A stretch of DNA of 52,423 bases from Syntrophomonas sp. UBA4807. Lineage in GTDB: Bacteria > Bacillota > Syntrophomonadia > Syntrophomonadales > Syntrophomonadaceae. The stretch lies in NCBI GenBank assembly GCA_002402575.1, contig DHGD01000149.1, forward strand, positions 1-52,423, read 5' to 3'. The position numbers and the translations under genes are program-made. Shown here one piece after another: positions 2,894 through 32,211 of this stretch. The notes beneath the pieces were generated by a model that was not told the origin of the DNA, did no database searches, and saw only the letters and a list, made by a program, of their open reading frames with translations. Every line of letters starts with the position of its first letter. Position 1 is the stretch's first letter.

Positions 2894-2911
2894 GCGTTTG
2901 TCGCAAGACAT

Positions 2912-3089: not shown

Positions 3090-3183
3090 ATCGAGAAGTG
3101 TAGACTATTCTACCCTGATATCATTTTTTCCCTGATCTTTTGGATTAGATAAAAGTTGTCACAAATTCTTCACATGCTCCATG

Positions 3184-6100
3184 CTAATTATTAAGCCCCA
3201 GCAGATCATCGTCTACCACCAGCATACCACCGTAGATCTCCAAATAGCGATGTATTATGGCTGCTATCTCAGCCCTGGTGGCAGGGGCGGTGGGATCTAT
3301 GTAACTATTGTCTTTGCCCTGGATCAATCCCTGCCCTACAGCCCATCTCATGGCACCCAGGGCATAATCAGACACCTTGGCGGCATCCCTGAAGCTCTTC
3401 AGTTCTCCCCTGGCTCTGACATCTTTACCTTTGCCAGCAGTGTAACGGTAAAGAACAGCAGTTATCTGCTCGCGGGTGATGGGGTCGTTGGGGCCGAAAC
3501 GGCTGTTTCCATACCCGTCAATGATACCATTGGCTTCAGCCCAGGTGATGGCATCGGTGTACCACAGGCTGCCTTCAACATCACTGAAGCTGGTGTAACC
3601 CGCAACTGTTGGACGACCTTCGAGGCGGTAAAGTATCGTAGTCAGCATAGCTCTGGTGGTTGTGCCTTTAGGATCGAAAAGGTCTTCGGCGATGCCTTCC
3701 ATAATATTCATAGCATATACATATGCTATGGCGGCGAAATACCAGTCAGCCGTTCCAACGTCCTTAAATTGGCCCTGGGCCATTGGTACAATCTGTCCGT
3801 CAACCAGGGTGTACTGCCCGCTGTGGGCGATTATCCTGTATTTGCCGCCGAGTACCGCGTAGGCTGCCAGGGTGTTGGTTTCAAAGCTCACCACACCACC
3901 TTTAGCCATAACCTCAAATGAGCTTAGTTTGCCATCCTTGCAGCTTAAGACCGTCAACAACTGACCCTCGTATTCGGCTCCCACCGGAATACTAACTGTT
4001 ACACTGCCTTTAAATGCTCGGGTCAAGGATATGTCGTAGTTGACCAGGGCTTTGCCTGAAGTCACCAGTTCCCGAATGAACTTGCAGACCCGGCAAGTTT
4101 CTTCTTGATGTTCGGTAGCTTCGGTGACAACCAGCCTTGCGGTAGTTGAAATCCCCTTTCCGGTAACAGTCACTCCCGTCTGGGGATCGATCAGGGTAAC
4201 AGGGGGTTTAATGCCACCGCCGCCTCCGCCGCCGCCTTCCTTGAACCAGTTGGTCAAATACACGGATCCATAGGTCGACGCTGCGGTAACCTTATTTCCG
4301 GGCACCCATACATCTAAGGGGTTATCCACTGATTCACCAGCATTGCCGAAAGCATTGATATTCAGTTCGCTGGCATTAATGCTTCTGGCGCTGCCGCTGT
4401 CTATAACGCTGCCTGCGGCCACAAGATCGGTTCTGCCCGTGGTATTAATGCGGTTGATGGTGAGTTGTTCGGAATTGTTCATCAGCCACAGTTCCGGAGC
4501 GCTAACGGTGAGTTGATCAACCGCGCTGGCCAGGCGGTTGTCTGCCGAGCCAATGCTTCCATCGGCCTCCAGAGTCAACTGCCCGGCGATGATATTGCTG
4601 ACATTGCCTCCTCCTGCGGCAGCACCTGAGGTGATGCTCCCTGCCACATCCAGGTCTACATTATTACCCATTACGGTGTCTACTGTGAGAGCTTTTTGAT
4701 TGCTGATATAGACGTTGTCCCCGATGGCAGTAATCTGGTTTACATTGGTAAGCAGCGGATCTGTCGATGCCCCGACATCTCCCAGGAGGCTGTTCAGGCC
4801 GGCATTATCAGCTGTTATATCGGTCCCGGAATAACCTGTCATGCCCCTGATGTCTCCCAATGAATCAATGTGAACATCTCCGTTAACAATGACCGGGGCC
4901 AGGAAGAGATCTCCGCCGCTTTCGATATAAAGTCCGTACAGAGTAGTACCCTGACCGGTCGTTATTCTCAAAGTGCCTGCAGTGGTCAGTCCCAATGCGT
5001 TGTCCTCTGAACCGATAGTGCCAGCACTGAGGAGGTTCAGGGTCAGGTTGCCTGAGGTGTTAATGCCTGAAGCCAGTGCATCGGCCATCATTTCTATAGC
5101 CTGGCCCTCCAGGAACACAGCGGCTGCTTCTAAACTGCTGGCCTGTCCGGTTTTGGCATCTACCAGGTCGATTTGGGCCTGGGCCAATTGAAGGTCAATT
5201 TCGTTCACTATCCCCTGAGCATCATGGCGACTCAGTGTCAACAGAGGAATGGTCACAGTTTCCATTTCCATGTTCTGCTCCTGCAGAACTCCCAGCTCAG
5301 CATTCTTGAGGTTGAGCTGTACCTGCTTGGAATTTACAACGGCTTGGGCAGTAGATACATCATCCTGCAAAGCAGCGATGATAAGATCTTGAGCTGCAAT
5401 CTGATCCGGATCGGTGAGCGTATCGCGGAAAAGGATGGCATTGGCCAGTGCAGTCTGGGCATGAGCCAAATCCTCATCGAGCCCTGCTTTTTCATCCTGG
5501 AGGTCAAACAGTGCAGCCTGGACAGCATTTATGTTGGCCTTGATATTAAGCAGGTTCTGCTCAGCCGCGGCCAATTCTTGGATGGCGTCCTCTAAGGCTC
5601 GTTGAGCTGCGGGTCGGCCTAATATTCCGGGCAATAGGTCAGTCACATAATGCTGCAGTATCAGAGCCTGGGCTGCAGCCAGATCAGCTGCACTGCGGGC
5701 CTGAGCTGCCGATATTTTAGCTCCTACTGCAGCCGCAATCGTATCGGCAGTGCTGGTTTCAGTTATAGACCCGCTTCCAGCGGAAAGTGTGACATCGCCG
5801 CCGCCGCTTGAAGTTATGGTACCAACCTCGATGCCTCCTGCTGCGGCAATATTTATGGTGCCGTTGCCGCTGGCATTGATGACGTCTATGATTAGATCTC
5901 CAATCAACTCGTTGATATTTATGGCTCCACCTGCGGCGCTGGCCGAGAGTTTGCCGCCCTCTGCAGCATCGCTGTCTATGGTGAGCGGAACCTGGTCGGT
6001 GCCAATTCCGCCATCCTGCGCTATGAAGGAAATGTTGGCGGCCCATACATTAGCGTCATGCCCCAGTCTGTCGCCGGCAGCTATGCCTGCAACCGAAGTT

Positions 6101-9100
6101 ATTACTGACTTGCCAGCTGCGCTGACAAATCCGATCAGGAGATCTCCAATTGTATTGGACAAATCTAGATCGCCTGCAGCATTTGCATTTACCTGCCCAG
6201 AAACACTGTCTGCGATCAGTGTCAGGCTGTCGCTGTTATTGATATTGATGTCTCCGTTGGTGATGATATGAACCGTACCGTTGATATCAGTATCAATGTA
6301 ATCTTGATTGGTTCCTGCCGTACCGGCTAGGGCTGTGATGGTCCCCCCTGTGGCTGCAGTGATATTTGGGGCGTGTTCATCCTCAGCGCGCACGTCGTAT
6401 ATAGAGCCGGGGGTTGTCAGGGTCACACTGCCAGAGCTGGAGTTGATGACATTTACCCCCATGTCCCCGGTCAGTTCGGTTATCTCGATATCGCCCGGGG
6501 CAGCGGCTGTAATCTTGGCGGCAGATTCGATATCCAAATCACGAACCGTGGTGTAATCAATGGCGAAATGCATCTCCACTTGACCAGTTTCCGCATTGCG
6601 GGCCAGAATCCAGGTGCTGTTGCCGGTTTGACCGTAATCCTGATTGCTCTTGTTCTCGTCGGTTATATTGGCGATAGTGGTGGGCGGCCAGGACTTCTCA
6701 TCCACATTTAGACCCGTGATGCCGCCGCTGGTCGCGGTCAATTCGATATCCTCGCCATAGATATTGGTTTTGCCGTTAACCCCGGCGATGTCGGGGCTGG
6801 TTATGGCTACATCACCGTATGTGGAGACAATCTCAGCAGCCGTAAAGGTACCGTCTTGCTGAGTAACAATGATGTCGCCCATATTCTCCATGCTGCTGTC
6901 CCCGGTTGATTTTCCTATATTCACCATCAGTACCCTTATTTTTTCGGCATCGTTTTCAGGTACAGGATAATCGGCCAGAGCCCAGGCAGCTTCGATAAGA
7001 TTCAGTTTCTGATCCTCGGTCAGAGATTCCCAGTAGGCTTTAAACAGGTTGCTATCAGCGATGCGGCTTTCAATTACATAAACCGGTATCTGGATGGGAT
7101 TGCCAAATTCATCCACTCCATTGCTGAAGAGCGGGTTGCCAATCTCGTCCACTGCCTGCAGGTAAACTGGATTCCCGCTGCCGTCCACACCTGTAACCAC
7201 CGGTTGCTGAGCATCCAGGGCACCAGCCAATAAAGCTGCCATAGCCGCTTCGGTCTCGCTCAGACCCAGATCCAGCAGGTATCTGAGTTCATCGTCAGAT
7301 AGTCCGCTGTCAGCGTTCAGTATAGCATTGATGCTGGCCCTGTAACTGGCTATGACCTCACCGCGATACTGCTGCACAACCCCGCTATAGTAGGTCTGAT
7401 AAGCCGACTGTATCTGGGTGACGGTTGCCTTGACCGAGAGTCCCAGCTGTTGGCGCAGTTCGACCAGAATGTCATTCTTAGTGGCCGTCTCCGGCAATCC
7501 CAGTTTCACGGCCAGACTGACCAGCTGTACCGGATCATTTCCGTTTAACACGGTCAGGTCGAGCTGCGGCTCTGGATCAGCTACCCCGAGACCCAAATTA
7601 TCGACCAGGCTGGCCAGTTCGGCAGCATCCATGGCATTCAATGACATCACCACAGATTCTACAGCCGCCTCATCAATTCCCAGCAGCGATCTTATTTCGT
7701 CCCCGGTTAAGATGCCGCTGATCAGGGCTAAGAGTTCATCCTCTGTCAGGGTGCCGTTGCTCAACTGGGCGGCGATTTCTGACGCGCTCTGGGCCGGCAT
7801 GACCACGTTGACAATCTGGTCATCAATTAGCATGGAATTGGTAGCTTCATCGTGATTGGCGGTATTGCCGTTTTCATCTCGTCCATAGGTAGGCAGGGTG
7901 TTGTCATCGGGATCAATGCCGGTATCCTGGGCAAGGAAAAGGTTGACCACGTTCTTGATAATGAAGGGTTGGGCCTCTCCATCTCCGTCCAGTAAGATAT
8001 TGATTTTAAAGGGCAGAGTTGCAGTGCCGATATCCCCACCTATATCCACCCAGGTGTCGCCTTCCCCGGCAGTAGAATTTGGGCCGATGGTGATAATGGA
8101 ACCCTCATCCTGCATTAACAGGCTGCCATTAGAGGCCGTAATCTGCAGGGTGCCATCTGAAACGGCCTGATCCACGGTGACATCTCCGACCCCAGAGCTG
8201 ACTGCCACGTTTCCGGTGGAGTTGATATTCACCTCATTCATATCGACATTGCCAGACATAGTGGCGGCAGTCAAGTCACCGCTCACCGCCACATCCTCCA
8301 TGCTTATATTGCCAACCCCCACCGTCAGGTTGATTTCTCCGCCCTGATTGATGCCTACATTGTTCATGAGGGCATTGCCTGCGGCCACAGTCAGATCCAA
8401 GAATCCGCCCCAAGCCATTTCGGTATCGTGGAGATTGACATTATCTCCCGCTCCTGACGCCACCACGTTGGCGCTGGCATCATAAGCCCCTCCGGCAGAA
8501 GTCTTGATAAGTCTGAGGTTAACCGTATCAGATAGATTGGGCGCAATCACCAGAGGGTTATCTGAACTGAAAATATTGCCGCTGTCTTCGGCCACAATTA
8601 CCACATTGTCGGATATAACATTAATATTGGATGCGTCGCCGTTATCAGTCAGAGTGGTATTAGCGCCAGCAAAGCGGAGATTGACATTATCTGCGGTAAT
8701 GCTGTTGACTCTCACCTGTGAGTCGCTGTCAAAGCTCTCCAAAGTCCGGTTGACCGGTCTGGGAATAAAGCCGGTGTTTCCTTCCGAATCGATCCAGGTA
8801 TTGTCTTCGAACAGGAAGGCGATTCTTCCATCGGTGAGTTCGAGTATGGTGAGCAGCAGCCCTCCTTGAGGGTTGTAAATGTTCATCATCGCGGCCCCGT
8901 CAAAGTCGGCATCTGCCTCTCCGGACGATTCATACAGGATATCCAGTATCTCTTTGTCCAACAGGACCAGGTCACCGAGAGCATTGAAGCCGAAATAATC
9001 AGCATCGGCATAGAAACTGTTCATAGTCACTGCCATTGCTGCAGCTTCCAGGAAGGAAATATCATCTTGGCCTGGGGTTGCCATATACAGACCAGTCATC

Positions 9101-24100: not shown

Positions 24101-27100
24101 GAGCTCGAACCACTGTTGGTAGCTGCGCTGCGAGCCACCGGGTCTGAACCGGAGACGCTTACGGTGTCCAGATCATTCTGGGCGAGGGACGATATCTTAA
24201 TGCTGGCCGCGTCCACCCGGCGATTGCATCCGATCCCGGCGTAGACGGTAAGATCGGCGATGCTCAGCGCAAAGGCTGCTCCCACACCAACCGTCTTGTT
24301 ATCGGGGGACCCTGAAGTGGTTCCACTTCCGGAAGCACTGGTAGTGTCGGCTGTGCCATTGTTGGTGGCAGTGCTGCCATTGGTGGCCGCCTTGTTTTTA
24401 TCCGCCCTTCCCTTGCCATCAGCGGAAGAACTGGCGGTGGTGTATACCTTCTGGGCTCCATTGGCGGTAATGATTATGTCACCGCTGATATTTATATCTT
24501 CTCCTTCTCTGAGAGCACTGCGGTCGGCTATTACGGCCTGGGTTAGACCATTGACCACGGAAATGGCTGCCGAACCTGCCACTCCCACGTTGGCCGCCCC
24601 CACACCGGAAACCGTCTGGGTGGAGATCTTGTGGCCAATGCCATCCAGTTCATCATTACTGCCCAGTATGGCGGCGATAGCCTTGACCGCCAGAGCGATT
24701 ATATCGTTGCGCTGTTGTGGGTCTTTGAATTTTTCCAGGGTGGCTTGAAAATAGGCCGGGTTGTTCTTGACCACATTGACCAGGACTTGAGCATCTGCCA
24801 GGCCGGCAGCTATATAGGATATAGTATCCATAACCACATCTTGGAAATCTTCATTTACACTGTCGGCCACATCGGTGCCGTTTAATGATGCTTGCAGGCG
24901 GGCGGCAATAACCGGAGCCAGAGCGGCAGCCATTTCATCCAGGCTGGTGCCTTCCGGCAGGGTTATCCCCCGGGATGTGATCTGGTCTTTGATATATGTC
25001 TCCAAAGTGGTGCCGGGGCCATTCAGTTCTTCTAATACCCCGTTGGCAAGCTCCGCTGCATTCAGTATCTCTAAGAGCTGTCCCACCAGTTCTTCCAGGG
25101 TCTTCTTGGCTTCCTCTTCATATATATCTGCAGATATTGTCAGGCTGGTGCCTTTCAGTTTGCAGTCGCCCACATAAGCAGTATTTTCATAAGTGACTAT
25201 ATTGATTGCAACTGCCACCCCTACCCCGGTTGTGGAGTTGGTAGCGGAGGCATTGGCCACAATAGCTGCGTCAGTATCGTTCTTACTGGAGATGACTATT
25301 TCGCCTTCAGACTCAACCACGATCCCGTCAGCAATGACCACCCGAGAAATGTTCTTCTGTATATTGAGCGTAAAGGTAGCTGCCAGCTGTACGCTTCCTT
25401 CGGAGGTCTCCGCCTTCTGCCGGTTTGCGGTCAGGCTGTTGACCGAGCTTCCAGTTACATTCTTTGTGCCGGCCGCATCAGCCATATTAGAAGCTGCCTG
25501 AGTATTGTCATCAGCTATGGCATCAGCTTCACCTTCTTTGAACAGATTAGCAAAATCCTCGCTATAATCATCTTCTTCGGGGGGTGTGGTCTCGCCACCC
25601 TCTTCAAACAGATTGGAGATTCCGTCATAGGGATCGTCCGGGTCAGGGTCAGGGTCAGGGTCAGGATCGCCTGAATCCGTACTATCGCCCGACAATGTTC
25701 CACTGTCGGTGCTTGATGTATTGCTGGCTGTACTTCCTGTAGTGGTCGTGCTGGTTGCTCCGGAAGCACTGGCCTTGCCATTGGCAGTCAGTCTGCTCAC
25801 TGAATCAGCCTTAACATAGACCTTTCTTCCTCTTATACTGCGCCCCTGTGTAGCCGTAGCACTATCATTGATAATGTCGATAATAAATGTCCCCCCGGCT
25901 CCAACGCCGCCGCCTACTGCAGCCGCATCGGCCAGAATGTTGCGGGTGATCTGATTTGCTGCGGTAATATTAACATCACCACCGAATATTAGTAGCGCGT
26001 CGCTGTTATTGGTGCCGGTGTTGGCATCCACATAAATTCCGGATATATCCAGGGCCAGGACCGGCACAATGGCAGTTCCTCCTGAAGCTCCAGCTTTGGC
26101 GGTCATTTTCTCGCTCCCATTATATGAGGCAGTTACGTTCATAGCATCCAAGACCGTTTCGTCCAGGGCGCGCCTGATCGATACCGCATCACCGATGTTA
26201 GCGAAACTGTCCACACCGATGACCGCAATGGCTATACCTGCGCCTATGCCCACCGAGTCTGAGGAGGGGCTTCCAGCTGTGGTTCCCTTGGAAACATTAC
26301 TGTTTCCTGACTTCCCGGCCGCATCAGCTACCGTAACCAATTTGCTTTGGGACACATCCGCCTTAACATTCAGACTGCCGCCACTCAAGATTATATCCTC
26401 ATTCAGCTCGGCGCTGTTTTGGGCCTTTAGCACATGCACTGTCAGGGCTCCCGCCAGGCCCAGATCGGCTGCAGTGAAACCGGCCCTGGAAATAGCTGCT
26501 GAAGAAAGGTTGGCGCTTAGAGCTGTAATATCCAACCCGCCAGCTTTTATCGGGGTTGAGGCAGCACTGACAAAAGCTTCATTATTATAATTAACCACTG
26601 TCACTGCCACTCCCACACCCAGAGCGATGCTGCCGGTGCGTGAAGCAGTCGGTTTAGTCGCGCTGCCTGCTTCAAAAATGGCTCCCAGACCAATCCTGGC
26701 TGCATCAGTATTCGGCATGGAGAACTGGTATATTCCCGCTGCGGTGGGAATTATGGTGGTAGTGCCAATTTTTAGACTGTTGGCCTTTAAGCGGTATCCC
26801 TCGGCGGCAATTATCTCTACGTAAAGAGCCGTCCCCACCTGTACCTGTGCCGACAATACCGTGTTGGCAGGATCATTAGATACGATGACATTGCCGTCCT
26901 TGTCCTTCACGGTTACTGTGCCGTTGATGATGTTATCCAGATACAGTTCCTTGGCAACACCCTCAAAATTGACTTTGACAATAACATTGGCGGCTGGCAT
27001 GGTGAGGCGATACTGATTGGTCTGGCCTTCAACCTGTTGGGCTGCAAAAGTGGTTTCGCTCCCTGCTGCACCGGTATAGGTGACCAGGACCTCCGTAACA

Positions 27101-30100
27101 CTATAACCAGCATTAGGGGTGATATGAACAATTATGCTGTCACCTTCATCCCCATAGATGGGGCTGGTATAAAAGGTGCCCGCAGCTGCGTTGATATTGC
27201 TGCTGGTTATGGTAAATCGCTTGGGATCAAAGGTGGCTCCCAGGGTAACAGAGCTGCCGTCGTTAGGCATGGTAAAGGAATATTGTTCACCCGTCTTGGC
27301 CAGCACGGTACCGTTTACGGTTATGCTATTCAGCGTATAGCCATCCGACACGTTGGGAGTGATAACAATGGTGGCGCCCGGAGTCTGGTCCGCTGCGGCG
27401 GTTTTGTCAATTATCAGGAAACCGTTCTGCGTGGTGGCAAAGGTTACTTTGCCCTGAGTGCGCCCTTCGTAGGTCATACCGGTATTGCCTGGCGCTGCTC
27501 CGGCATTGGCTACTCCAGTGGCGCCGGTGCTGGTTCGCTTGATAGGAGACCCGTCAGCCAGGGTTTCATCAACCATGGAACCGATGGCATGCAGGGCCAG
27601 CGTTCCTCCGCATTCGATGGTTCCAGTGGTATTTATAAAGGCCTTGTTGGTGTTTTCCGCATAGGTTACCGCCAGTGCTCCCACCAGCTGGGTGCTGCTG
27701 GTGCTGCTGGAGTCAGCGCTGCCTCCGGTACTGCCTGCGGTACCGGTATTGACCAGGTTGCCTGCCCCGGTATTGGTGCTGCCGGTTGAATCCGTGCCAT
27801 TGAGCCTGGAAGTGACCCCGGTCATACCCTCGCTGCCGCGCTGACCGCTCTGGCCATTGGTGGTAGTGGTAGAGGATTTGGTTAAGAGGCTGCTGACTTT
27901 ATTAATAAGGTTAGCCAATGAAAATGATGTTCCCCCATCATCGGGATTTGAGGTGGCCTTATTGCTGACCCGCTCAAAGGCTGATGAGTTAAGGGCTAAA
28001 CCTCCCCTGGCATCAGCCGTGGCATTTTCTGTGATTGAGGCAAACACGTTTTGCACCGCCACCGAGATGGCAAAGAATCCACCTGACTGGCCGGGGGTCT
28101 GTGGCGTGGATCCGGATGATCCGCTGTCTGCCTGAGCTTTGGGACCGGAAGCGGAAGTGGTTATATTGGTCCAGCCATAGGCAGAAGCAATAATGTCACC
28201 TTCAGCGTCTATACCAGTGTTGCCTTTAATATCCACACAGGAATCGTTCACCACCGCCGAGACCGCCAGAGTAAAGGGCAGTAAGCCCGAAACCGCACTG
28301 GTTTCCAGGGTTACATCAGAATCGGCATTTAAGAATATTCCGCCCTGGGTGGCTTTCATCCTGGCATTGCCCGTGCTGGTAATTTTGGCATCAGATACTA
28401 CTACACCAACTGCCAGGGGAATCCCAAAAGCAGCCAGGTTATCATTCAGAGCCGAGACATTGACCAGCGCATCAGCCACTGCGTGTATGGCTGCAGCTTC
28501 GATAGTTCCTTGGATGTCAATTTCAGCCTTGCCTACTTTAACCGCCACAAAATTGATATTCAAGGTGTCGGCATACTCCGGACCGAACCTGGCAGTAAGC
28601 TCTTCCAGGGTGGGGACAAGCGGTTTAGTCTGTTTGCTGCCGGCTTCCAGGTTAACGGTTTGGACAGCAGTCAGGCTGGCAGTCGCCGCAATATTAATAA
28701 CAGCGTCACTGACGATATCGAACAGGCTGGCTTCCAAAGCATAATCATCAGCCTCATCGGTAAGATCGTTGTCCACGATTTCCAGGGCGTGGCTGTCAGT
28801 ATTCTTCACTTTGATGGAGATATTTTTGCCGGTGACCGTCCCAACGATGGTGACGCTGCCAGACTGGTTAAGGCTGCTGTCAGCCCCGGAAATTACGATA
28901 TTGACATGGGGCGTCCACACATTACCGACTGTAACATCTCTGCCCTTGATCACCAGGTTGGTCAGGAAGGTGCCGCTGCCGGTGGTGTTGGCGTAGTTGA
29001 CCGTACCGTTGTCGCCGTCCAGGATATAATCGGTGAAGCTGACAAAGTCAGTGCCGGCCAGGAGGTCACCGATATTAACGGTATGCTTGTTGTCCAGTTC
29101 GTCAGTGACTGCCTCTACCCCGCTCATACTCACCGATAAGGCGCTTGTCAGCCGGGAGATGGCGGCGGCATCATTAAAGACGCTAATTTCGGCCAGGGTG
29201 CCCATCTCCACCAGACTGGCATTGCCGCTAAGATTATTGTTAACGCTGTCATATTCCTGCAGCTTTCCAATGAGGTTGGTGCGGTCATAAGCGTTACCGC
29301 CGTCAACCACCACATCAACACTGCGGAAACTGCTGAAGGAGACAGTAGTATCAACATTGATTAAATCATCACCGTCACCCCCATAAAGGAGGATAGTGGT
29401 GCCGTTGCTGGCTAGGGATTTGGTCTGCTCCATAAACTCTTGAATAATGGGGCTTAATAACACTGTGGCCAGACCGAGTTCCATGCCTCCGTCAACAGTG
29501 ACGGTGTCTGCGCCGGCACCGCCATTAACGTTCAAATCAGTGGCTGAAAGATCCAGGGAAAATTCTGCCCCGCTGGGAGTGGTATTAGCTTGCTCGTCGC
29601 CGGTAGTGGAGATATCGGTGCTGTTGATCAGGGTAATGGTTATTTCATCATCTCCCTGGCCACCGTCGATCACCGCATGCAGCCGGGAGCTGCCCCCAAC
29701 ACCAGACAGGCCATTACTTATTGCCTCACTAATCAAACTTTCACCGCTCTCGGTCAAGGCTCCGGTATCGGTATCGAATCCTTCACCCCTCGTCAGCGAA
29801 ACCGTTACCGTAGGGCTTTGCTTTACGGATAAATCGAGAACGTCGTCTCCTCCGCCCATATCTATGGTTACACTATCGGTGACTCCACTCAGCTCGAGCT
29901 TGACTTCGTCGCTCAGTCCGGTGCCGTAATAGGCGACATTGTCAGCATCAGACACTTTTATGGTGTTTTTCAAGGACAGATAAATACCCGCCAGTAAAAC
30001 ATCAATGCCTTCAAAATTCAGGTCGCCTTCGACCCCGACCCCTCCGGCAGAATTGGCATTGGCAGTTATTTCGCCACTGCTCTCATCCTTGGTGAAAGCG

Positions 30101-30930
30101 TCAGCAGCAATGATGCTGTACAATACATTGTCAGCAGGAGTTGCAACCTCTCCTTCCGACTCCCCTTCAGCGGGGGCGGGAGCGGTAATTTGGATGGCGC
30201 CGGTATATACGCCGTTGTTTACGATGATGGTGACATTGCTGGCCGCAGTGGCTTTGGCCGCCTCTATAGCTTGCTGAATGGCATTTTGAGTAGCGGTATT
30301 TTCGTAAACGGTTGCTTCGCTGCCGAATATGTAAGCCGACCCCTCAGGAATCTGATATTCCGGAACCGTTTCCACCGCGGGGGCTTCTATGCCTGTGGGG
30401 GTTGCCTCCTCTTCTTCGGTCGCCGCCATAAGCATCATCTCGCCGCCGCTGCCCTCTTCAGTGCCGTCATCTTCAAACGGCAACCCCATGGCGGTAAATA
30501 TTATTTCGTCGCTGCCATCAGTGCTGCCCGAATTTAGGTCTGTGCCGTCTTCTTCCTCACTGCTTCCCTGGGGAACGTCTGAGCCTTCGGAACTGCCGCT
30601 ATCCCCAGGCATGGTGCTGCTGATATCTGCAGAGACATCCTCACTGCCCTCTGTAACATCTTCACCACTTCCCCCGTTATCTCCGCCCAATGAGTCGGAA
30701 CTGTCGCCGCTCTCCTGGTCGCTTAAAGTGGCATCGCTTTGATCGCTATAGCTGCTGCCTCCGCTGCTGACGATGCTGTTATCACTGGAAGTAACCTCCG
30801 AAAGGGCAGACTGCTCCCCTTCAACAGCCAAAGCAGACGAGTTAAAACTGAATAACAGCAGCACGATTAACATTGCGCTGGCCAGTATTCCCCAACTAAT
30901 GGCTGTTCTCTTCCTGGTGATAACTTTCAT
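3184..30930 (-). CDS. giant (9,248 aa) secreted, SLH-anchored filamentous cell-surface protein
   Basis: One uninterrupted ORF of 27,747 nt. GGAAGG RBS 7 nt upstream of the ATG. Signal peptide MKVITRKRTAISWGILASAMLIVLLLFSFNSSALA. Kilobases of repeats of the form xGVGxAxAVxxxxNxxxAxIxxxAxIxAxGxVxVxA (e.g. GVGVAVAINIVTYENTAYVGD, VGVGAAFAILYAENKVLVILGD). Three C-terminal SLH motifs and a terminator downstream. Confidence 0.92.
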   Translation of the reverse strand: MKVITRKRTAISWGILASAMLIVLLLFSFNSSALAVEGEQSALSEVTSSDNSIVSSGGSSYSDQSDATLSDQESGDSSDSLGGDNGGSGEDVTEGSEDVSADISSTMPGDSGSSEGSDVPQGSSEEEDGTDLNSGSTDGSDEIIFTAMGLPFEDDGTEEGSGGEMMLMAATEEEEATPTGIEAPAVETVPEYQIPEGSAYIFGSEATVYENTATQNAIQQAIEAAKATAASNVTIIVNNGVYTGAIQITAPAPAEGESEGEVATPADNVLYSIIAADAFTKDESSGEITANANSAGGVGVEGDLNFEGIDVLLAGIYLSLKNTIKVSDADNVAYYGTGLSDEVKLELSGVTDSVTIDMGGGDDVLDLSVKQSPTVTVSLTRGEGFDTDTGALTESGESLISEAISNGLSGVGGSSRLHAVIDGGQGDDEITITLINSTDISTTGDEQANTTPSGAEFSLDLSATDLNVNGGAGADTVTVDGGMELGLATVLLSPIIQEFMEQTKSLASNGTTILLYGGDGDDLINVDTTVSFSSFRSVDVVVDGGNAYDRTNLIGKLQEYDSVNNNLSGNASLVEMGTLAEISVFNDAAAISRLTSALSVSMSGVEAVTDELDNKHTVNIGDLLAGTDFVSFTDYILDGDNGTVNYANTTGSGTFLTNLVIKGRDVTVGNVWTPHVNIVISGADSSLNQSGSVTIVGTVTGKNISIKVKNTDSHALEIVDNDLTDEADDYALEASLFDIVSDAVINIAATASLTAVQTVNLEAGSKQTKPLVPTLEELTARFGPEYADTLNINFVAVKVGKAEIDIQGTIEAAAIHAVADALVNVSALNDNLAAFGIPLAVGVVVSDAKITSTGNARMKATQGGIFLNADSDVTLETSAVSGLLPFTLAVSAVVNDSCVDIKGNTGIDAEGDIIASAYGWTNITTSASGPKAQADSGSSGSTPQTPGQSGGFFAISVAVQNVFASITENATADARGGLALNSSAFERVSNKATSNPDDGGTSFSLANLINKVSSLLTKSSTTTTNGQSGQRGSEGMTGVTSRLNGTDSTGSTNTGAGNLVNTGTAGSTGGSADSSSTSSTQLVGALAVTYAENTNKAFINTTGTIECGGTLALHAIGSMVDETLADGSPIKRTSTGATGVANAGAAPGNTGMTYEGRTQGKVTFATTQNGFLIIDKTAAADQTPGATIVITPNVSDGYTLNSITVNGTVLAKTGEQYSFTMPNDGSSVTLGATFDPKRFTITSSNINAAAGTFYTSPIYGDEGDSIIVHITPNAGYSVTEVLVTYTGAAGSETTFAAQQVEGQTNQYRLTMPAANVIVKVNFEGVAKELYLDNIINGTVTVKDKDGNVIVSNDPANTVLSAQVQVGTALYVEIIAAEGYRLKANSLKIGTTTIIPTAAGIYQFSMPNTDAARIGLGAIFEAGSATKPTASRTGSIALGVGVAVTVVNYNNEAFVSAASTPIKAGGLDITALSANLSSAAISRAGFTAADLGLAGALTVHVLKAQNSAELNEDIILSGGSLNVKADVSQSKLVTVADAAGKSGNSNVSKGTTAGSPSSDSVGIGAGIAIAVIGVDSFANIGDAVSIRRALDETVLDAMNVTASYNGSEKMTAKAGASGGTAIVPVLALDISGIYVDANTGTNNSDALLIFGGDVNITAANQITRNILADAAAVGGGVGAGGTFIIDIINDSATATQGRSIRGRKVYVKADSVSRLTANGKASASGATSTTTTGSTASNTSSTDSGTLSGDSTDSGDPDPDPDPDPDDPYDGISNLFEEGGETTPPEEDDYSEDFANLFKEGEADAIADDNTQAASNMADAAGTKNVTGSSVNSLTANRQKAETSEGSVQLAATFTLNIQKNISRVVIADGIVVESEGEIVISSKNDTDAAIVANASATNSTTGVGVAVAINIVTYENTAYVGDCKLKGTSLTISADIYEEEAKKTLEELVGQLLEILNAAELANGVLEELNGPGTTLETYIKDQITSRGITLPEGTSLDEMAAALAPVIAARLQASLNGTDVADSVNEDFQDVVMDTISYIAAGLADAQVLVNVVKNNPAYFQATLEKFKDPQQRNDIIALAVKAIAAILGSNDELDGIGHKISTQTVSGVGAANVGVAGSAAISVVNGLTQAVIADRSALREGEDINISGDIIITANGAQKVYTTASSSADGKGRADKNKAATNGSTATNNGTADTTSASGSGTTSGSPDNKTVGVGAAFALSIADLTVYAGIGCNRRVDAASIKISSLAQNDLDTVSVSGSDPVARSAATNSGSSSGSTSTTTPKDISVDASVSVSLIQNDVKAYVGQGSQINTTAAADTIETDKVGEKVNFYLYARQSGETQTNASGFAVGNSTSVGAAVAVNIALSTVVASFAGHGTINGRAKVAAATYDEDEANALAVAMGADLDRYLSKFRAAQNLKTNNTNGTSTSTAGNNTSSLISGRLSSTGSSGGSEVSSTLPVSTNALHAQNASSTSTSQASASANDGNLSSIINETASGSSSNGGATTGSTVGGTLSGSNTDSSAQNSQKVHVAAAVGVNVTQHEALASISGSLAAKTIDAITTNNGNFSTVGTGVAATLMQNSNSIGVGVAVSVNKNAARVAIDGAVTAADGDITADAELTQNMDGVYRGKYGALGISGSISGSGGKAGVAGSLAIVVAGGESSVIIADGSVLTALNGHINLEATDKSKLSAAAMAAVLSKGTTVGVGAAFAILYAENKVLVILGDDVEVTAQSFTMNAEKKPVTISDWGLPFELSELFTADAASGQEGIINVTTNGTGSNKFGVTMNVKTEDLVDIAQLTSFLGSVNYYASAAAGTIVGGTDSKLAMAGSVSMLFQNSETAATIGDRAKITITSGDFDITASSDNNARIIGGALSVSSATAGVGLNVAVITNNDLVTATIGADGSVNVAAGNVNISAKSDVDAWSITVAAAVKTGGSGSGATVGGGLTVIVSENQVLAMAGNRSVIDAAGNVAIKAANDAYLLLVSASVAVDASSGSGVAAGGTVAVIVTGNQAQALLGEYAEIISGGEVTISSSNIEKLISTLASASGASQGTAVAGSVNVLVTNAKSVAAVGDFARITADGDVNVKAESNSKMITVLVGVAVSGSGAAVGATISVNVFNRLTQATTGIEALLISRSGSVLVQAVSKDWTLVITAAGGISPSSTAISGNIQTTVAQNHTTSSLGDGSTIKAYDSVGIVADHASNVYLAAANASMAGGTGVGATIVTAVLRNEVNASAGNNTDVTAYALATGSEAGILTPNRQNRRKGIIVSAQGSEQILMLGIGASGASSAAVSGVIDTLVVMNRVNAHVGNNTRMRSGTSPSDDKDGDGSEDGESSPGDIYIEADDASIIYNFGGAVAVSGSTGVGATIVTVVFDKEVKASVGLSGSTTATGNITVSAKASDDLNLVAVTFSAGSNVSVGLGGSVLIFMNDVTAELGGTVQAGGSIDVQAVSDEFLLNIAAAISVGGSAGVGGAAVVTYFTGKTIAKVVAGAMVDVTGLMTVAAESIEFVSADVAGVSGGGTAGVSGSVDIVITEVVTQAYTEGATETTAGVCINAGSLTLKATDDYEFVGVAVSAAIGGTAGVGVTAMLTIASNTVTAYIGEANRITTTAGDVTLLASSNRDLHMYAGTLAVGGNAGVGVTLMVAVIGGKLNQDASDSLQSGTDEDGNSVNTFDPHAVMGDQSAKSPGVTGAYYQEYDGDRLANKLQGDGSKVSDDNTGHEEYVYEKDTNGNLVKVQKKDNGGNLMFDEYGRPIWETQIVFDGTTGYRDPSFNEEYQDGDQPGAEFEADEESNADLNNAGKLGETQPDYNPSDSTSAFIGQNAVVRSAEDILVSAHDNMTADMVTATVAGGAYAGVGVGMAVGILYSNVLAYVEDGAVLSAAGDITVYARGGSTPVAADPDKNAALEGAINAQNSEDTEDVTVADLTIRAISFTGAGGFAGVGVAAGVVVLNSNVKAYIEGDVIKADSLTVKAVSDYPQVIAATLAGSGGVVGVSVSVATVAFNGSVSSAIVGDAQIGVPGEAGYEVGDVNVLSQATTDATTLAAAISAGGVAVNGALSLAINRSLIETFIGQGVSLKSTGNVKVLATVDTEADAYIVGAALGGGVTVGLSAAISILDPTILTYIGTTPYKSTPTAGASTGTTGSLRAVDVTVQNNTNTTASSTVLSVSGLSSVAVNGNVLLVFNNTVAYAAINQMPVAAAGDVNVDAYMISQADSFLAAATVGMTAVGVTVSYVRLASTNLAMLDTTGVTMRARNFNVFAGRDGEGQRNKSSAESTAIAGSVGLISVNINAAIADNDTINKAVITGSGNLTADNALNVGAHGNAAAEAKVIGISAGAISVAASVAVSLLRSEQSALISGGHIKAGSLAVISKLNDNATEASSVANLITGSGGLITVTANVAVAYGRSQSLATVNALSVDVTGGNIAVGSYGKADVLSGITNLSVSAVTANVMVGVAYSQARFEAIVNIPQNNSIKADTLIVETIYTANATADVTPSAGGVQASYATIGINLALATASSQASAALTGAGILTTDLVKVNADGTATAHALTRTPSISVNVINIAANIVAASSEAIQNASIVGVDIITGGDVQVTSTLNDGVGEGASAELGSNFDQAGYNALDGAGVDFSLFSAKINIAKAIANAVNYAYITGASLGAEGTPAGKLDVKVNSKSYAVAAIQESASSIGLISLGLTTLYAEAKGDFRAYIDTTGGVINAVAINVDNTYTSGAEAETAQAIGGVHAALADIKGNIAVSKVTTNAEAAIKGNGILSASGTINVTVTGIADAQSGVMTPTVSISGIKIAANILTATLEAVQKAYIENVTVKQAGATTVSSTLNASPANGARAILGSAAGSLGSDISYYGVTSSSAIAVSNSQNYAYVNGASFGDQSHMTGALTVISNGSSIANADISEGATSAGYMSMGTALLYARANGNYQAYVNTVALLNVESLSVTNTYTASAKAKTTQPVGGTFSGMEINTNIALASVGIIAEASIRGNGIINSPGLVKVQATGKATADAGVVTPIITISGIKIAVNVIEATLEAVQKAYINSAEVNAGSVQVGSTLNDQNETGAVAQLGSSAGGIGANVSLIGVEVHYAKATANNTNHAYVSGADITSQGAITVQSMARSYANASVNQNAVSLGLLTLGVTVLEATAQGNYAAYVLDSDLSGGNLTVNNNFTSVANAIASQPSFGVGVAVISALDNCADADTATIASAYIQNSNATIGTGNVSVGVQGTVSAYSAVESPTIKINGVKVAVSIAKASLSVLQKAYISGSSVMTSGNVNVYSWQNQDSETAGAIASLGGNGGSADADISLVGGAANIATATANATNLAYVTGTNLGSLEQKNGNLTIEAKANSYAKAGFINDNVTLTLASLGILTMTADAKGVFGAYLDSTDATLYVNELAITNAYKAISTAKSTQPGNGVGVRLVAGNVNYATATTATDASAFITGSGIINAAGINIQVTGTGSTATADIDAAKVNLSLAAQVAANVALSSLKVIQNAYISGSGTIEASGPVSVLSIIKSTSSSAEAGANGGANVSLATADLSMTKAESASTVNAYIEGYVTIVTQGDVSVGADLGGTVTSRAQAPDTSVTLLSLGVVKVTAAFTQDAVKAWIAGNANVTGSSVDVIANASGTATAIAEQPNTTVSAANVNGIYSEAKVDSRTVSAYIGSNATVISTGTAADDGVNVAAASTTVLSAYSNHSTNISLVGVGKYTIKTYVLNHSTTAVINGKVSARQNIWLSASDSITAAASTSASNAGLASEGSSTATSTIASQTGATTVGAGAWLEAQGDISIYSTTISNLTATVNANAVALGDFGSVSAATALNNRNTTFTAGDGARVVSRYGDIYISVLADTAKQNATATMGGYGLVSGGSGPESSAYLKTNTTATIGSGVVITALFGDLGINASSKNDIYAYAYRHMGTLAGSNQSKASITAIEDTIVTIGSSGAQSYLNSRNTDISSYLYQKLHAYAVSYTVSAGSLTEAKSYVTVTDKTEVNINNAFVGGIDTLDIHAAVIDMYIHSESYAEIIGLTGKVYATSSAGGSSMAVVNVAQGANLASQKMFIKAESPVITDQVVFRDATAKGNTVVNYVWKTIQRTVDKLVKWVSKIPIIGWFVKWVWTKVTEWVDVLVKEILYSDEKEYREGTMSSTGKVTINGAVHLGGAAAGMFVDIKEDGTVVYSGLDDAFAETAVLSSENNTVTLDKLYNQDLGELTITASSSGAINGSITVFNNDYLPNLVVNNWSAYDLILGQIAAVNGQLGSPTLNMGNGVSFVLDTEIPHLTVVSHQDSDLTFSRSVDVGDGNVNLIMAGGDVNTAANEGQGKPAAVWANRLIVENAGNIGNAANGFNAYILDIPEIPGTTGIIKTMPARPTYIALQALKDIYAAFTHVIVNLESTQRTVSPILTLDRIEAGGIADLLIKAPHELVYQGNANLNESIDVSQPGRRDTLVRLDGSQDELVINDTLGTETSYTLLPNGMIKTNQGLTIRGAHYYVGDSGMSGDSGETQIAHYYLPSGDILAVDRTSGRIVNVITFDNRVYDLDAISFIDGESQDTIQFKQEKFNVVYSYDSNGHLTGVNIEISAQNLANGGVTIYVETEASELGWSLPDGTRVYYKNAFLKDGTEVQPVFLGMKGSNFLYVLEPLYSERSFYHVVEFQVVDGESTFVQGYIYTRDELNNAAVVNLGRDMSLKQAKDEATNVLNSYSSSSFSAASIPELVAAEVEANLQSKLTNNWKFTVQVRFTTKDITVTIGEGEEQTTETRTIIDDVMIDINLTEDVPAGETPETALVYKIIDVVGSEYQTTLTGEALSYTTESTAGSKSAEAALGSEFGAGVLGSRSGTIYIIKQDGAVVGLTVKNGAYYYDLLYNQDYQAYVVKPATYTGNEKKLYEELLGRYFVLSAEESTITVFELDQTGSGQSTITKDQYGNILASSLNGGYHVVNGGYLFVDNATTTDANSGILYLVDRAVVVTTDGHVYPVAVEGNAISGDISAETISFSQHMTQRTDSYGRLVYSKLQYQYRDPDDNQIKYFMSSGPGDAVYDEIDTRLDLAGYYYSNSLVAATSYRTVNETWYEGYYYDTDSIPVYYLRQPKTNASGDILYSVFNIMTGRYLEGEFTASEAESYSGMSWLYQVTPIYRDIEGLTIVRPVEDGFTVTYTDPCSFSIPVDQNGYGVIAKDKRVLLEDDGTFPAGTVLYLEENQAVTALFTPQGEFYLYQQGTSYTAGIPDDQEIYTAYRGESSGATLDLIAYLAPGSQLMLHEVMTGLYMATPGQDDISFLEAAAMAVTMNSFYADADYFGFNALGDLVLLDKEILDILYESSGEADADFDGAAMMNIYNPQGGLLLTILELTDGRIAFLFEDNTWIDSEGNTGFIPRPVNRTLESFDSDSQVRVNSITADNVNLRFAGANTTLTDNGDASNINVISDNVVIVAEDSGNIFSSDNPLVIAPNLSDTVNLRLIKTSAGGAYDASANVVASGAGDNVNLHDTEMAWGGFLDLTVAAGNALMNNVGINQGGEINLTVGVGNISMEDVAVSGDLTAATMSGNVDMNEVNINSTGNVAVSSGVGDVTVDQAVSDGTLQITASNGSLLMQDEGSIITIGPNSTAGEGDTWVDIGGDIGTATLPFKINILLDGDGEAQPFIIKNVVNLFLAQDTGIDPDDNTLPTYGRDENGNTANHDEATNSMLIDDQIVNVVMPAQSASEIAAQLSNGTLTEDELLALISGILTGDEIRSLLGIDEAAVESVVMSLNAMDAAELASLVDNLGLGVADPEPQLDLTVLNGNDPVQLVSLAVKLGLPETATKNDILVELRQQLGLSVKATVTQIQSAYQTYYSGVVQQYRGEVIASYRASINAILNADSGLSDDELRYLLDLGLSETEAAMAALLAGALDAQQPVVTGVDGSGNPVYLQAVDEIGNPLFSNGVDEFGNPIQIPVYVIESRIADSNLFKAYWESLTEDQKLNLIEAAWALADYPVPENDAEKIRVLMVNIGKSTGDSSMENMGDIIVTQQDGTFTAAEIVSTYGDVAITSPDIAGVNGKTNIYGEDIELTATSGGITGLNVDEKSWPPTTIANITDENKSNQDYGQTGNSTWILARNAETGQVEMHFAIDYTTVRDLDIESAAKITAAAPGDIEITELTGDMGVNVINSSSGSVTLTTPGSIYDVRAEDEHAPNITAATGGTITALAGTAGTNQDYIDTDINGTVHIITNGDININNSDSLTLIADSVSGQVNANAAGDLDLSNTIGDLLIGFVSAAGKSVITSVAGIAAGDRLGHDANVWAANISFIAQDGGIGTDQVPLTIDSDAAEGGKLSASAAGGAININELIGDLIIDVINASGNGTINIAAAGGIEVGTITSSGGGDVTLSAGSGSITETSTADTIAAAVGAKISAAQARSAADLAAAQALILQHYVTDLLPGILGRPAAQRALEDAIQELAAAEQNLLNIKANINAVQAALFDLQDEKAGLDEDLAHAQTALANAILFRDTLTDPDQIAAQDLIIAALQDDVSTAQAVVNSKQVQLNLKNAELGVLQEQNMEMETVTIPLLTLSRHDAQGIVNEIDLQLAQAQIDLVDAKTGQASSLEAAAVFLEGQAIEMMADALASGINTSGNLTLNLLSAGTIGSEDNALGLTTAGTLRITTGQGTTLYGLYIESGGDLFLAPVIVNGDVHIDSLGDIRGMTGYSGTDITADNAGLNSLLGDVGASTDPLLTNVNQITAIGDNVYISNQKALTVDTVMGNNVDLDVAGSITSGAAAGGGNVSNIIAGQLTLEADGSIGSADNRLASAVDQLTVSAPELWLMNNSEQLTINRINTTGRTDLVAAGSVIDSGSARSINASELNINAFGNAGESVDNPLDVWVPGNKVTAASTYGSVYLTNWFKEGGGGGGGGIKPPVTLIDPQTGVTVTGKGISTTARLVVTEATEHQEETCRVCKFIRELVTSGKALVNYDISLTRAFKGSVTVSIPVGAEYEGQLLTVLSCKDGKLSSFEVMAKGGVVSFETNTLAAYAVLGGKYRIIAHSGQYTLVDGQIVPMAQGQFKDVGTADWYFAAIAYVYAMNIMEGIAEDLFDPKGTTTRAMLTTILYRLEGRPTVAGYTSFSDVEGSLWYTDAITWAEANGIIDGYGNSRFGPNDPITREQITAVLYRYTAGKGKDVRARGELKSFRDAAKVSDYALGAMRWAVGQGLIQGKDNSYIDPTAPATRAEIAAIIHRYLEIYGGMLVVDDDLLGLNN
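3190..3770 (-). other. three S-layer homology (SLH) domains, C-terminal cell-wall anchor
   Basis: FKDVGTADWYFAAIAYVYAMNIMEGIAEDLFDPKGTTTRAMLTTILYRL; FSDVEGSLWYTDAITWAEANGIIDGYGNSRFGPNDPITREQITAVLYRY; FRDAAKVSDYALGAMRWAVGQGLIQGKDNSYIDPTAPATRAEIAAIIHRY. All three match the F.DV...W....I......G...G.....F.P....TR.E consensus. Confidence 0.9.
5075..5720 (-). other. ~215-aa predicted coiled-coil segment of the giant protein
   Basis: Ala/Gln/Leu/Asp/Glu-rich and Gly/Pro-poor: AAQARSAADLAAAQALILQ...AIQELAAAEQNLLNIKANINAVQAALFDLQDEKAGLDEDLAHAQTAL...QLNLKNAELGVLQEQNMEME...IDLQLAQAQIDLVDAKTGQASSLEAAAVFLEGQAIEMMADALASG. It is flanked on both sides by beta-helix-type repeats. Confidence 0.6.
14200..18100 (-). 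repeat. about six tandem ~230-aa super-repeats inside the giant ORF
   Basis: A recurring anchor peptide recurs with a 665-720 nt period. It reads AVSLLRSEQSALI near 17850, AASSEAIQNASI near 17185, LTATLEAVQKAYI near 16465, IEATLEAVQKAYI near 15775, ASLSVLQKAYI near 15100 and LSSLKVIQNAYI near 14400. Conserved blocks recur between anchors (NxxNYAYVxGA, GNYxAYV, TNxYTxxAxAxTxQP, ISGIKIAxN). Confidence 0.8.
25640..25663 (-). repeat. (GGGTCA)x4 hexanucleotide repeat encoding (Pro-Asp)n linker
   Basis: The plus strand has gggtca four times in perfect tandem. The coding strand gives DPDPDPDPDPDDP inside a Ser/Thr/Asp-rich linker. Confidence 0.9.
26670..27455 (-). repeat. three tandem ~85-aa Ig-like modules (InlB B-repeat-like) inside the giant ORF
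   Basis: Repeated pattern: ITPNVSDGYTLNSITVNGTVLAKTGEQYSFTMPNDGSSVTLGATFDP; ITPNAGYSVTEVLVTYTG..YRLTMPAANVIVKVNFE; IIAAEGYRLKANSLKIGTTTIIPTAAGIYQFSMPNTDAARIGLGAIFE. Coordinates are approximate (+/-30 nt). Confidence 0.55.
30826..30930 (-). other. Sec signal peptide of the giant protein (35 aa, cleavage after SALA)
   Basis: Basic n-region (KVITRKR), hydrophobic core ILASAMLIVLLLFSF, then SSALA/VEGE. Confidence 0.75.
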
Positions 30931-32183: not shown

Positions 32184-32211
32184 ATTATAACATTATTCGC
32201 TGATATGTAAA
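32184..32211 (-). promoter_or_regulatory. strong sigma-A-type promoter for the TPR + giant-ORF unit
   Basis: Minus strand: TTTACA (32211-32206), 16-nt spacer ending in TGT, and a perfect TATAAT (32189-32184). It lies directly downstream of the GGCT-gene terminator. Confidence 0.5.

Follow-up and report, generated by a model that had tools for sequence, protein, structure and literature searches.

The DNA analysed here (the window) is a 52,423-nt stretch of contig DHGD01000149.1 from Syntrophomonas sp. UBA4807. Two adjacent minus-strand genes in it are the subject of this study. The larger encodes a 9,248-aa protein with a calculated mass of 942.5 kDa and a pI of 4.2, referred to here as the giant protein. 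The smaller lies immediately upstream and encodes a protein with tetratricopeptide repeats (TPR). The two genes, their flanking signals and the modules of the giant protein are listed in Table 1.

The giant gene is a single frame with an ATG start and zero internal stops, as found both in the open reading frame (ORF) listing and by our own translation. Given the base composition of the window, the probability of 9248 stop-free codons is ~1e-189. A ribosome binding site (RBS), GGAAGG, is located ~8 nt 5' of the ATG. Plus-strand ORFs within the gene (e.g. 3181-3921 and 27037-27789) were taken as shadow ORFs of the minus-strand frame. A scan of the window for terminators found none on the minus strand in the 62-nt gap between the TPR gene and the giant gene. 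Since one promoter and one terminator bracket the pair in the window, the two genes appear to form an operon. A preliminary description of this DNA had claimed one uninterrupted 9,248-aa ORF of ~0.9 MDa with an RBS, a signal peptide and a terminator. The frame, its position and the mass estimate hold, the strand had to be corrected to minus, and the three signals were identified as GGAAGG, the predicted cleavage site ALA-VEG and a hairpin with an 11-bp stem.

Syntrophomonas sp. DTU019 (locus L002, contig CAJYDM010000006.1) has a syntenic open frame, which reaches the edge of the locus examined and is 70% identical to aa 6416-9244 of the giant protein. The neighbouring Mur ligase is 87% identical between the window and DTU019, 83% identical to that of a metagenome-assembled genome (MAG) labelled 'Pelotomaculum sp. 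UBA5255' and 78% identical to that of a Syntrophomonadaceae MAG, which assigns the window to Syntrophomonadaceae. Comparison of the window and DTU019 frames using the Nei-Gojobori method gave pN 0.17, pS 0.61 and a dN/dS of ~0.15, with values <=0.22 in every 300-codon bin. Purifying selection thus acts on the whole part shared with DTU019. At the DNA level the giant gene contains one 30-bp hexamer array and one 50-nt repeat family at <=72% identity, and nothing more. Self-comparison of the protein revealed repeats that are old and diverged (20-47% identity). Because the DNA is nearly repeat-free, collapse or expansion of repeats in the assembly is improbable; it was rejected on this ground and on the collinearity of the orthologues described below. 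The giant ORF is a genuine gene. It is missing at the syntenic position, the only part of these genomes searched, in two more distant relatives (L003 and L004).

Table 1. Features of the TPR-giant locus in the window.
Feature	Residues (aa)	Window position	Strand	Basis or remark
Terminator-like hairpin		32238-32260	minus	precedes promoter-like site
Promoter-like site, TG-extended -10		32184..32211	minus	11/12 match, before TPR gene
TPR partner, 383 aa		30993..32144	minus	Pfam TPR families; ends 62 nt upstream of giant ATG
Giant ORF, 9,248 aa		3184..30930	minus	translation, orthologue
Signal peptide	1-35	30826..30930	minus	by inspection: basic n-region, 19-aa hydrophobic core, ALA-VEG at aa 33-36; conserved in homologues
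Acidic Ser/Gly/Glu/Asp low-complexity linker	36-190	30361..30825	minus	net charge -40; in all homologues, poorly conserved
Conserved N-terminal head	191-1130	27541..30360	minus	AF2 model, 11 homologues at 28-68% identity
InlB B-repeat/Ig-like cassette	~1150-1440	26611..27483	minus	Pfam Flg_new_2, E 2.8e-8 at aa ~1247-1324
Stalk	~1400-6000	12931..26733	minus	degenerate Ala/Gly/Ser/Thr/Val-rich ~55-aa β repeats
Non-repetitive central block	~6000-7400	8731..12933	minus	β-rich, Tyr-rich; self-comparison
C-proximal region	~7400-8898	4237..8733	minus	sequence and helix-propensity scan; weaker repeats; collinear with P0068
Gly8 hinge	8899-8906	4213..4236	minus	sequence
Small pre-SLH module	8907-9050	3781..4212	minus	3/10 of the protein's Cys; no family match
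Three SLH domains	~9055-9103, 9115-9163, 9180-9229	3235..3768	minus	PF00395
Intrinsic-terminator-like hairpin		3092-3068	minus	11-bp stem and T-run, ~90 nt past giant stop, closes operon

The only strongly hydrophobic segments of the giant protein are the signal peptide and one Ala/Val-rich stretch, and the body is without a transmembrane segment. The head has two parts. The first (aa ~191-650) consists of short strands, is β-helix-like and carries three GGxGxD turns at aa 423, 470 and 517 (47-aa spacing) out of five such motifs in the protein. The second (aa ~655-1130) has very long β-strands of 14-18 residues. Twelve sequences went into an AlphaFold2 (AF2) model of aa 190-1389, which was nearly all β with a mean pLDDT of 68. 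It showed short strands in the first ~360 residues, the long strands of aa ~655-1130 at pLDDT >90, and then immunoglobulin (Ig)-like modules.

The NCBIfam model LktA_tand_53 (NF012206), which has a cutoff of 50 bits, scores 122 bits in the stalk, with 8 stretches between aa 2752 and 3751, and matches more weakly in adjacent tiles. The spacing of these repeats is ~54-60 aa at aa 2832-3149. Super-repeats of ~230 aa, 35-47% identical, occupy aa ~4200-5650. The stalk also has inserts, a PDPDPD stretch at aa ~1755-1765 and helices at aa ~1924-2100 detected by sequence and a helix-propensity scan. An iterated repeat hidden Markov model (HMM) contracted to a 36-residue core that recovered just 23 copies, and the total repeat count is not fixed by that model. 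Because stalk repeats resemble the modelled long-strand module in sequence (tiles at aa 1001 and 2401), the stalk probably shares the architecture of that module.

The central block is the region best conserved with DTU019, reaching 82% identity at aa 7000-7300. Within it lies a Trp-rich amphipathic helical segment (aa 6101-6145, window 12496-12630) with the motif KVSKIPxIGWxxK..V.EW. This segment is kept in four relatives (P0001, P0076, P0077 and P0080) and missing from a fifth, P0068. The C-proximal region runs from a toastrack/DUF4097-like solenoid (~7450-7700) through a helical insert (~7700-8000), a solenoid (~8000-8390) and coiled-coil-like helices (~8390-8625) to a final solenoid (~8625-8898). 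Matches to DUF4097 and LiaG are weak here, and DUF4097 is significant at the equivalent position of the homologue P0065 (E 3.7e-10). The small module that follows the hinge may be a β-sandwich, a guess made from its sequence. The SLH domains gave 3 stretches of 110.7-117.5 bits against a Pfam cutoff of 20.8, and the SLH domain of Bacillus anthracis Sap was matched in the PDB (E 4e-7). The protein ends in ...DDDLLGLNN.

Much of this anatomy had been anticipated. The preliminary description listed three C-terminal SLH domains, an acidic low-complexity linker, 230-aa super-repeats, helical inserts, a coiled coil and a large non-repetitive block, all of which were located as given above, and its Ig-like modules correspond to the InlB B-repeat cassette. 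The resemblance to LktA-type repeats that it had pointed out is confirmed by NF012206. Tile-wise HMM searches of the kind it had suggested recovered SLH, InlB B-repeat and LktA-type models. The GGxGxD motifs it noticed are present but form no tandem RTX array, and its Gly7 hinge has eight glycines. It did not mention the conserved TPR partner.

Most of the protein is invisible to domain databases. Pfam searches of 500-aa tiles at E<=5 detected just the SLH triplet and Flg_new_2, the rest being noise, and >95% of the protein escapes Pfam. PDB sequence and profile searches, run on both halves and on two alignments, returned SLH only. Pfam, NCBIfam, PDB and Foldseek searches detected no enzymatic or toxin domain, in agreement with the earlier impression, and no known ligand-binding domain. 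Foldseek searches of the PDB with the 1,200-residue multidomain models of the head and central block yielded no convincing match or meaningful TM-score, only weak similarities to HxuA, OspA and Rhs-type β architectures. The AF2 model of the central block had a pLDDT of 59; its similarities to lysenin-pore and Rhs-type folds (TM <=0.14, and <=0.07 for the Rhs core) come from this low-confidence model. Foldseek against the viral library BFVD matched 'bacterial repeat domain' proteins with a probability of 1.0, and these matches were assigned to the InlB/Ig cassette because it is the sole Ig-like part of the model.

When the central 1,200 aa were compared exhaustively by HMMER with 1.84 billion representatives, 28 matched, each a fragment or relative from the giant's own family; a word-index search gave one match among 5.8 billion clusters. 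Sequence and literature searches returned no characterised family that covers the whole length. The literature on giant SLH proteins, surface proteins of Syntrophomonas, β-strand repeat proteins and LktA, as searched, yielded no description of the giant family or of its pairing with a TPR gene.

Giants also lie downstream of TPR genes in other genomes. Three assemblies of one lineage encode proteins of 9,261 aa, 9,231 aa and 603+8,643 aa, and further loci encode 8,633 aa (L019), 9,625 aa and 9,801 aa (an Oscillibacter MAG, L020). In the Oscillibacter MAG a spurious 201-aa minus-strand ORF (11189-11794) was called over the linker and the giant start was called ~156 codons late; once the start is shifted to the real signal peptide the protein has ~9,957 aa. 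The gene called as 603+8,643 aa (L017, 11202-21125) is otherwise identical, with a frameshift or stop near codon 603, and represents either a sequencing error, a natural pseudogene or a phase variant. Intact orthologues of 8.6-10 k aa are present in at least six independent assemblies. The comparison of orthologue lengths across related genomes that had been proposed earlier thus finds size conserved, with giants from 8,633 to ~9,957 aa in Syntrophomonadaceae-like and Oscillibacter assemblies and a 7,587-aa variant. The protein had been called exceptional for a Gram-positive wall. It is not a one-off, since several Clostridia have relatives of 7.6-10 k aa, and the wall is that of an atypical thin-walled monoderm (PMC11448272).

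The N-terminal ~1,200 aa have 11 homologues at 28-68% identity, nearly all cut at contig ends and including MAGs labelled Lawsonibacter, Anaerovorax and Lachnospiraceae. In all of them a signal peptide comes first, followed by an acidic linker and then the conserved head, which is the part most widely shared across orders. Over their first ~3,300 aa the long orthologues are collinear with the window protein, with 70-73% identity in three lineages, 54-66% in L019 and 47% in Oscillibacter. Alignments of orthologues are almost indel-free, and identity in the stalk (70-89%) is at least that in the head. Because orthologues are collinear with almost no indels, repeat number is fixed. The L019 protein (3721-13654) is cleanly without an equivalent of aa ~1150-1440, so that the InlB cassette appears to be an optional module.

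The C-terminal anchor also varies. P0068 is a complete 7,587-aa member that is collinear with the giant to aa ~8894 and then continues with an acidic linker, a transmembrane helix and a KRKK tail. This ending stands where the giant has its Gly8 hinge, small pre-SLH module and SLH triplet, and contains no LPXTG. Two homologue fragments, P0065 and P0070, terminate in SLH. Because P0068 swaps the end module alone, the anchor is best seen as a swappable terminal module and the C-terminus as the cell-proximal end. With the SLH anchor at the C-terminus the N-terminus should be distal, as had been proposed, and P0068 reinforces this.

Some of these loci carry other genes of note. L011 encodes a second large SLH protein of 1,990 aa (163-6135; Flg_new, CarboxypepD_reg, SLH), ~2.6 kb upstream of the TPR gene and ~3.9 kb from the giant gene; genomes like this one carry several big SLH surface proteins. 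In L016, L017 and L018 a ParE-like toxin/MazE pair, a Y1 transposase and a DUF5648-fn3-Cu_amine_oxidN1 protein lie upstream of the TPR gene at a distance of a few kb, which hints that the TPR-giant cassette sits in a variable region in this lineage.

The TPR partner has a basic N-terminus and one transmembrane helix, and is predicted to be oriented N-in with its TPR domain outward. A gene of ~370-420 aa of this type sits directly upstream of the giant, on the same strand and with gaps of 29-166 nt, in L011, L012, L013, L015 and L016-L023; the orthologue of P0068 ends 29 nt upstream. The orthologues are 38-56% identical, with 42-56% over the full length for those upstream of the N-terminal homologues, and each has a basic N-terminus and one hydrophobic helix. 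A bait search with the TPR protein recovered 52 orthologues, and on long contigs the next gene downstream was a giant ORF every time. Conversely, the TPR gene was present in every locus with an examinable upstream region, bar one distant relative (L014). Since the flanking genes differ among loci, the TPR-giant pair is a conserved unit. The partner showed no orthology to any characterised TPR protein, and its PDB sequence matches were generic TPRs including STI1. We infer a family-specific, dedicated extracytoplasmic helper.

One TPR orthologue, P0019 (73% identity), comes from a MAG labelled Methanocorpusculum sp. Almost certainly the contig is bacterial and was put into a methanogen bin in error, which may reflect tight co-abundance of syntroph and methanogen.

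Two traits are proposed to define the family. One is the order signal peptide, acidic linker, head and collinear stalk, found in the 11 N-terminal homologues and six long loci. The other is a single-transmembrane TPR orthologue immediately upstream, found in the window and in all the loci listed above, not in L014. Judged by these comparisons, the proteins make up an undescribed family of putative TPR-partnered giant β-fibre proteins in Clostridia, conserved in size at 7.6-10 k aa.

Besides the TPR protein, the neighbours of the giant gene in the window include GGACT, a restriction-modification (R-M) system, an abhydrolase and a Mur ligase. A tRNA-Trp (CCA) gene (2818-2893, minus strand) lies between the giant terminator and the abhydrolase and Mur ligase genes, and the same flank is syntenic in DTU019. 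On the other side of the operon GC content drops from ~52% to ~42% (32916-46000). This low-GC stretch holds a type III R-M pair (res 32916-36017 and mod 36031-38118), a MerR/helix-turn-helix (HTH) gene, a truncated reverse-transcriptase ORF (42568-43062), and PadR with two DUF1048 genes, and it has the appearance of a mobile or defence island. The segments 51201-52118 and 45926-50275 hold a Fic/DOC and HTH protein and, where GC is back at ~50%, ORFs of 343, 279, 152 and 396 aa without a Pfam match.

The giant was compared with known systems. LktA of Fusobacterium necrophorum is a ~3,200-aa protein of a diderm host, exported by the TpsB-type partner LktB. The giant stalk matches its ~53-aa repeat model at aa ~2750-4200, and both are very large, secreted, Ala/Gly/Val-rich β-repeat proteins. 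However, the repeat model covers only ~15% of the giant, which is 3x larger, SLH-anchored, paired with a TPR protein and found in a monoderm host without lipopolysaccharide (LPS). No two-partner secretion (TPS; Haemagg_act) domain was detected in aa 1-1000 by Pfam or NCBIfam, even at E<=5, and no TpsB gene (POTRA plus β-barrel) lies next to the giant in the window or in the related loci examined.

With other SLH proteins, such as B. anthracis Sap and the anchoring scaffoldins of cellulosomes, the giant shares an SLH triplet and a Sec signal peptide. In clostridial anchoring scaffoldins the triplet is C-terminal, as it is here. Unlike these proteins, the giant lacks known passenger domains such as cohesins or an S-layer lattice and instead carries ~9,000 aa of family-specific β repeats, and its family can exchange SLH for a transmembrane anchor. 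A diderm context (Negativicutes-type, OmpM/SLH or autotransporter) was considered and rejected, as Syntrophomonadaceae are without LPS and BamA genes (PMC11448272) and the protein has no β-barrel domain.

Fibrillar adhesins have been defined by a stalk, an adhesive domain and an anchor (Monzon and Bateman, PMC8286594). Like them, and like Ebh, SiiE, LapA and MpIBP, the giant combines a signal peptide and an end anchor with a very long repetitive stalk; it also has non-repetitive modules, among them an InlB-type Ig cassette, and its surface is acidic. A stalk and an anchor are thus present, while no adhesive domain is recognisable. The stalk differs in being built of LktA-type long-strand repeats rather than Ig, FIVAR or Big beads, and in being unusually invariant, with a fixed repeat number across orthologues. 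In place of the type I secretion system (T1SS), RTX C-terminus, LPXTG motif or accessory Sec of other giant adhesins, the giant has a TPR partner. An RTX/T1SS assignment is contradicted by the Sec signal peptide, the lack of tandem or C-terminal GGxGxD motifs and the lack of T1SS genes in the neighbourhood. An LPXTG/Ebh-type assignment is contradicted by the SLH C-terminus and the lack of FIVAR or GA matches. A Rhs/WapA assignment finds no RHS_repeat, an SLH C-terminus, and a terminator and tRNA-Trp downstream.

Giant proteins from metagenomes were described in a recent preprint (bioRxiv 10.1101/2023.11.21.568195). They include the 'archaeovorins' of Omnitrophota, which have many transmembrane regions and SecA-DEAD domains, and Clostridia giants of 10-30 k aa with RCC1, Listeria-Bacteroides-repeat, YG-repeat or dockerin domains. 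Like the window giant, they are metagenome-derived, fragmented in short-read assemblies and predicted to contain β-helix filament regions, and some are from Oscillospiraceae; unlike it, they carry domains none of which was detected here. The term 'SLH' appears nowhere in the text of the preprint, and TPR is named as a domain inside giants, not as a separate partner gene (bioRxiv 10.1101/2023.11.21.568195).

The partner itself invites comparison with envelope TPR escorts of long polymers or large secreted proteins (the TPR domains of BcsC, PgaA and AlgK, TPR pilotins, and STI1/Hop co-chaperones). These systems, like the predicted one here, couple a membrane-tethered extracytoplasmic TPR to a long exported polymer. 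The giant's partner differs in having no β-barrel, lipobox or enzymatic domain and in residing in monoderm-type cells, and the likeness is a functional analogy only, without homology.

We propose the following model. The giant chain would leave the cell via Sec, N-terminus first. The C-terminal SLH triplet would tether the 0.94-MDa protein non-covalently to the cell wall, leaving ~9,000 residues to project outward as a long acidic fibre, mostly β-solenoid or β-meander. From the wall outward the order would be SLH, small module, Gly8 hinge, solenoid, coiled coil, solenoid, helical insert and toastrack-like solenoid, then a globular block of ~1,400 aa specific to the family, the stalk of ~4,600 aa, the InlB-type Ig cassette, the ~940-aa head and an acidic tip. 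The stalk repeats (~55 aa, LktA_tand_53 type) are fixed and ancient. The TPR protein would be co-transcribed and would receive, hold or guide the β-rich chain on its way out of the Sec channel and through the wall. We propose, by analogy with the escorts above, that it acts as a holdase or guide. Assuming 0.5-1 nm per ~55-aa repeat (a solenoid rung or meander hairpin), the stalk would measure ~40-80 nm and the molecule on the order of 100 nm, both rough estimates.

Syntrophs rely on close contact with methanogens, the consumers of their hydrogen and formate, and the adhesins responsible are unidentified (PMC11224092). Because the host lineage needs such contact, the best functional guess for the giant is a contact or adhesion fibre. 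Its most likely role would be that of a long-reach fibre for cell-cell, cell-partner or cell-surface contact in dense anaerobic consortia. As a whole, we consider it reasonably probable that the giant is a Sec-exported, SLH-tethered β-fibre serving contact or adhesion and that the TPR protein is its helper.

Several observations weigh against this reading. No adhesive domain was identified in the head or central block by Pfam, NCBIfam or Foldseek. Typical adhesin stalks vary in repeat number; the giant has a fixed set of stalk repeats, conserved to the same degree as the head, and a precise structural role would explain this at least equally well. The distal tip would be acidic and of low complexity, unusual features for the tip of an adhesin. 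Both AF2 models are of moderate to low confidence (68 and 59), leaving solenoid-versus-meander geometry and fibre length uncertain, and the filamentous nature of the protein is suggested by all-β predictions of moderate confidence. The orientation of the TPR protein comes from the positive-inside rule alone, and no TPR gene lies upstream of the most distant N-terminal homologue (P0012, L014). Within the 52-kb window, the part of the genome covered, no csaB-like gene for pyruvylation of the secondary cell wall polymer is present.

The same observations could be explained by a structural role. The giant might be a fixed-length strut, spacer or scaffold that organises or supports an outer protein layer or sets cell-cell spacing, with the TPR protein as a membrane-side assembly platform. 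Syntrophomonas (S. wolfei) and Oscillibacter are Gram-negative-staining, LPS-less, BamA-less, atypical thin-walled monoderms, and the envelope of S. wolfei is multilayered with a non-LPS outer layer (PMC11448272). Such a layer would suit a strut, as would the conservation of total length and of each repeat with almost no indels, a stalk conserved as well as the head, and the failure to find an adhesive domain. On the other hand, the anchor can be either SLH or transmembrane, the InlB cassette is missing in L019, and a single 0.94-MDa chain would be costly for a bulk layer. The gene may also be non-essential for the envelope, being absent in L003 and L004 from the syntenic position, which is where these genomes were searched. 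We regard a strut as possible though unlikely. A role in polysaccharide-directed display, with the head binding or cleaving glycans of extracellular polysaccharide or of a partner sheath in the style of pectate lyases or tailspikes, is less plausible still and we consider it improbable. It would account for the β-helix-like short strands at the start of the head, for the GGxGxD turns, which may bind Ca2+, and for the sharing of the head across orders. The head motif ...NAIQQAI.AA....VTIVVNNGVYTGGI... presumably also recalls right-handed parallel β-helix proteins. Yet no Beta_helix, pectate-lyase or CBM family was matched even at E<=5, catalytic residues cannot be assigned, and neither the PDB nor BFVD returned a tailspike, the convincing BFVD matches being of the InlB type only.

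A leukotoxin-like or contact-dependent effector, whose LktA-type repeats and Trp-rich segment would damage neighbouring membranes on contact or after release, is very improbable. The NF012206 repeats do score over the cutoff, the amphipathic Trp-rich segment is conserved, and the central block has weak Foldseek similarity to lysenin-pore and Rhs-type folds. These similarities, however, stay at TM <=0.14 on a low-confidence model, the Trp-rich insert is missing from P0068, and the protein is anchored via its C-terminus. TPS, toxin and Rhs/YD domains are all missing, as is a TpsB/LktB-like neighbour, and downstream there is no conserved small gene of the immunity type. The idea of an artefact, that is a mis-assembled or decaying locus without a functional product, is effectively refuted. 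The metagenome-type source, the split gene of L017 and the truncation of most database homologues might suggest it, but the truncations fall at contig ends, and chance cannot account for the frame (~1e-189). The low dN/dS against an independent genome, the intact orthologues in independent assemblies and the near absence of DNA repeats also oppose it.

The contact-fibre reading can be extended, though we consider the extension doubtful. The TPR protein and the giant might be an unrecognised two-component surface-fibre system of anaerobic Clostridia, in which the TPR protein chaperones a fixed-length ~100-nm β-solenoid fibre, the head and central block recognise partner cells, and the tether sets the distance for interspecies H2/formate transfer. 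If this were true, the partner targets could be the sheath or S-layer of hydrogenotrophic methanogens.

We rate the protein family and its conserved TPR partner as new, and the giant wall-anchored surface fibre as a known kind of structure. Short-read assemblies routinely break members of this family into 'hypothetical' fragments, and the TPR gene offers a practical genomic marker for locating full-length giants. The partner also hints at an unknown route for the export or folding of megadalton β-proteins across a monoderm envelope. Even if the giant proved to be a mere generic spacer or adhesin, it would still stand for a new giant surface protein family that is well documented. For the question of how obligate syntrophs locate their methanogenic partners and stay attached to them (PMC11224092), the TPR-giant locus provides a concrete, conserved candidate.

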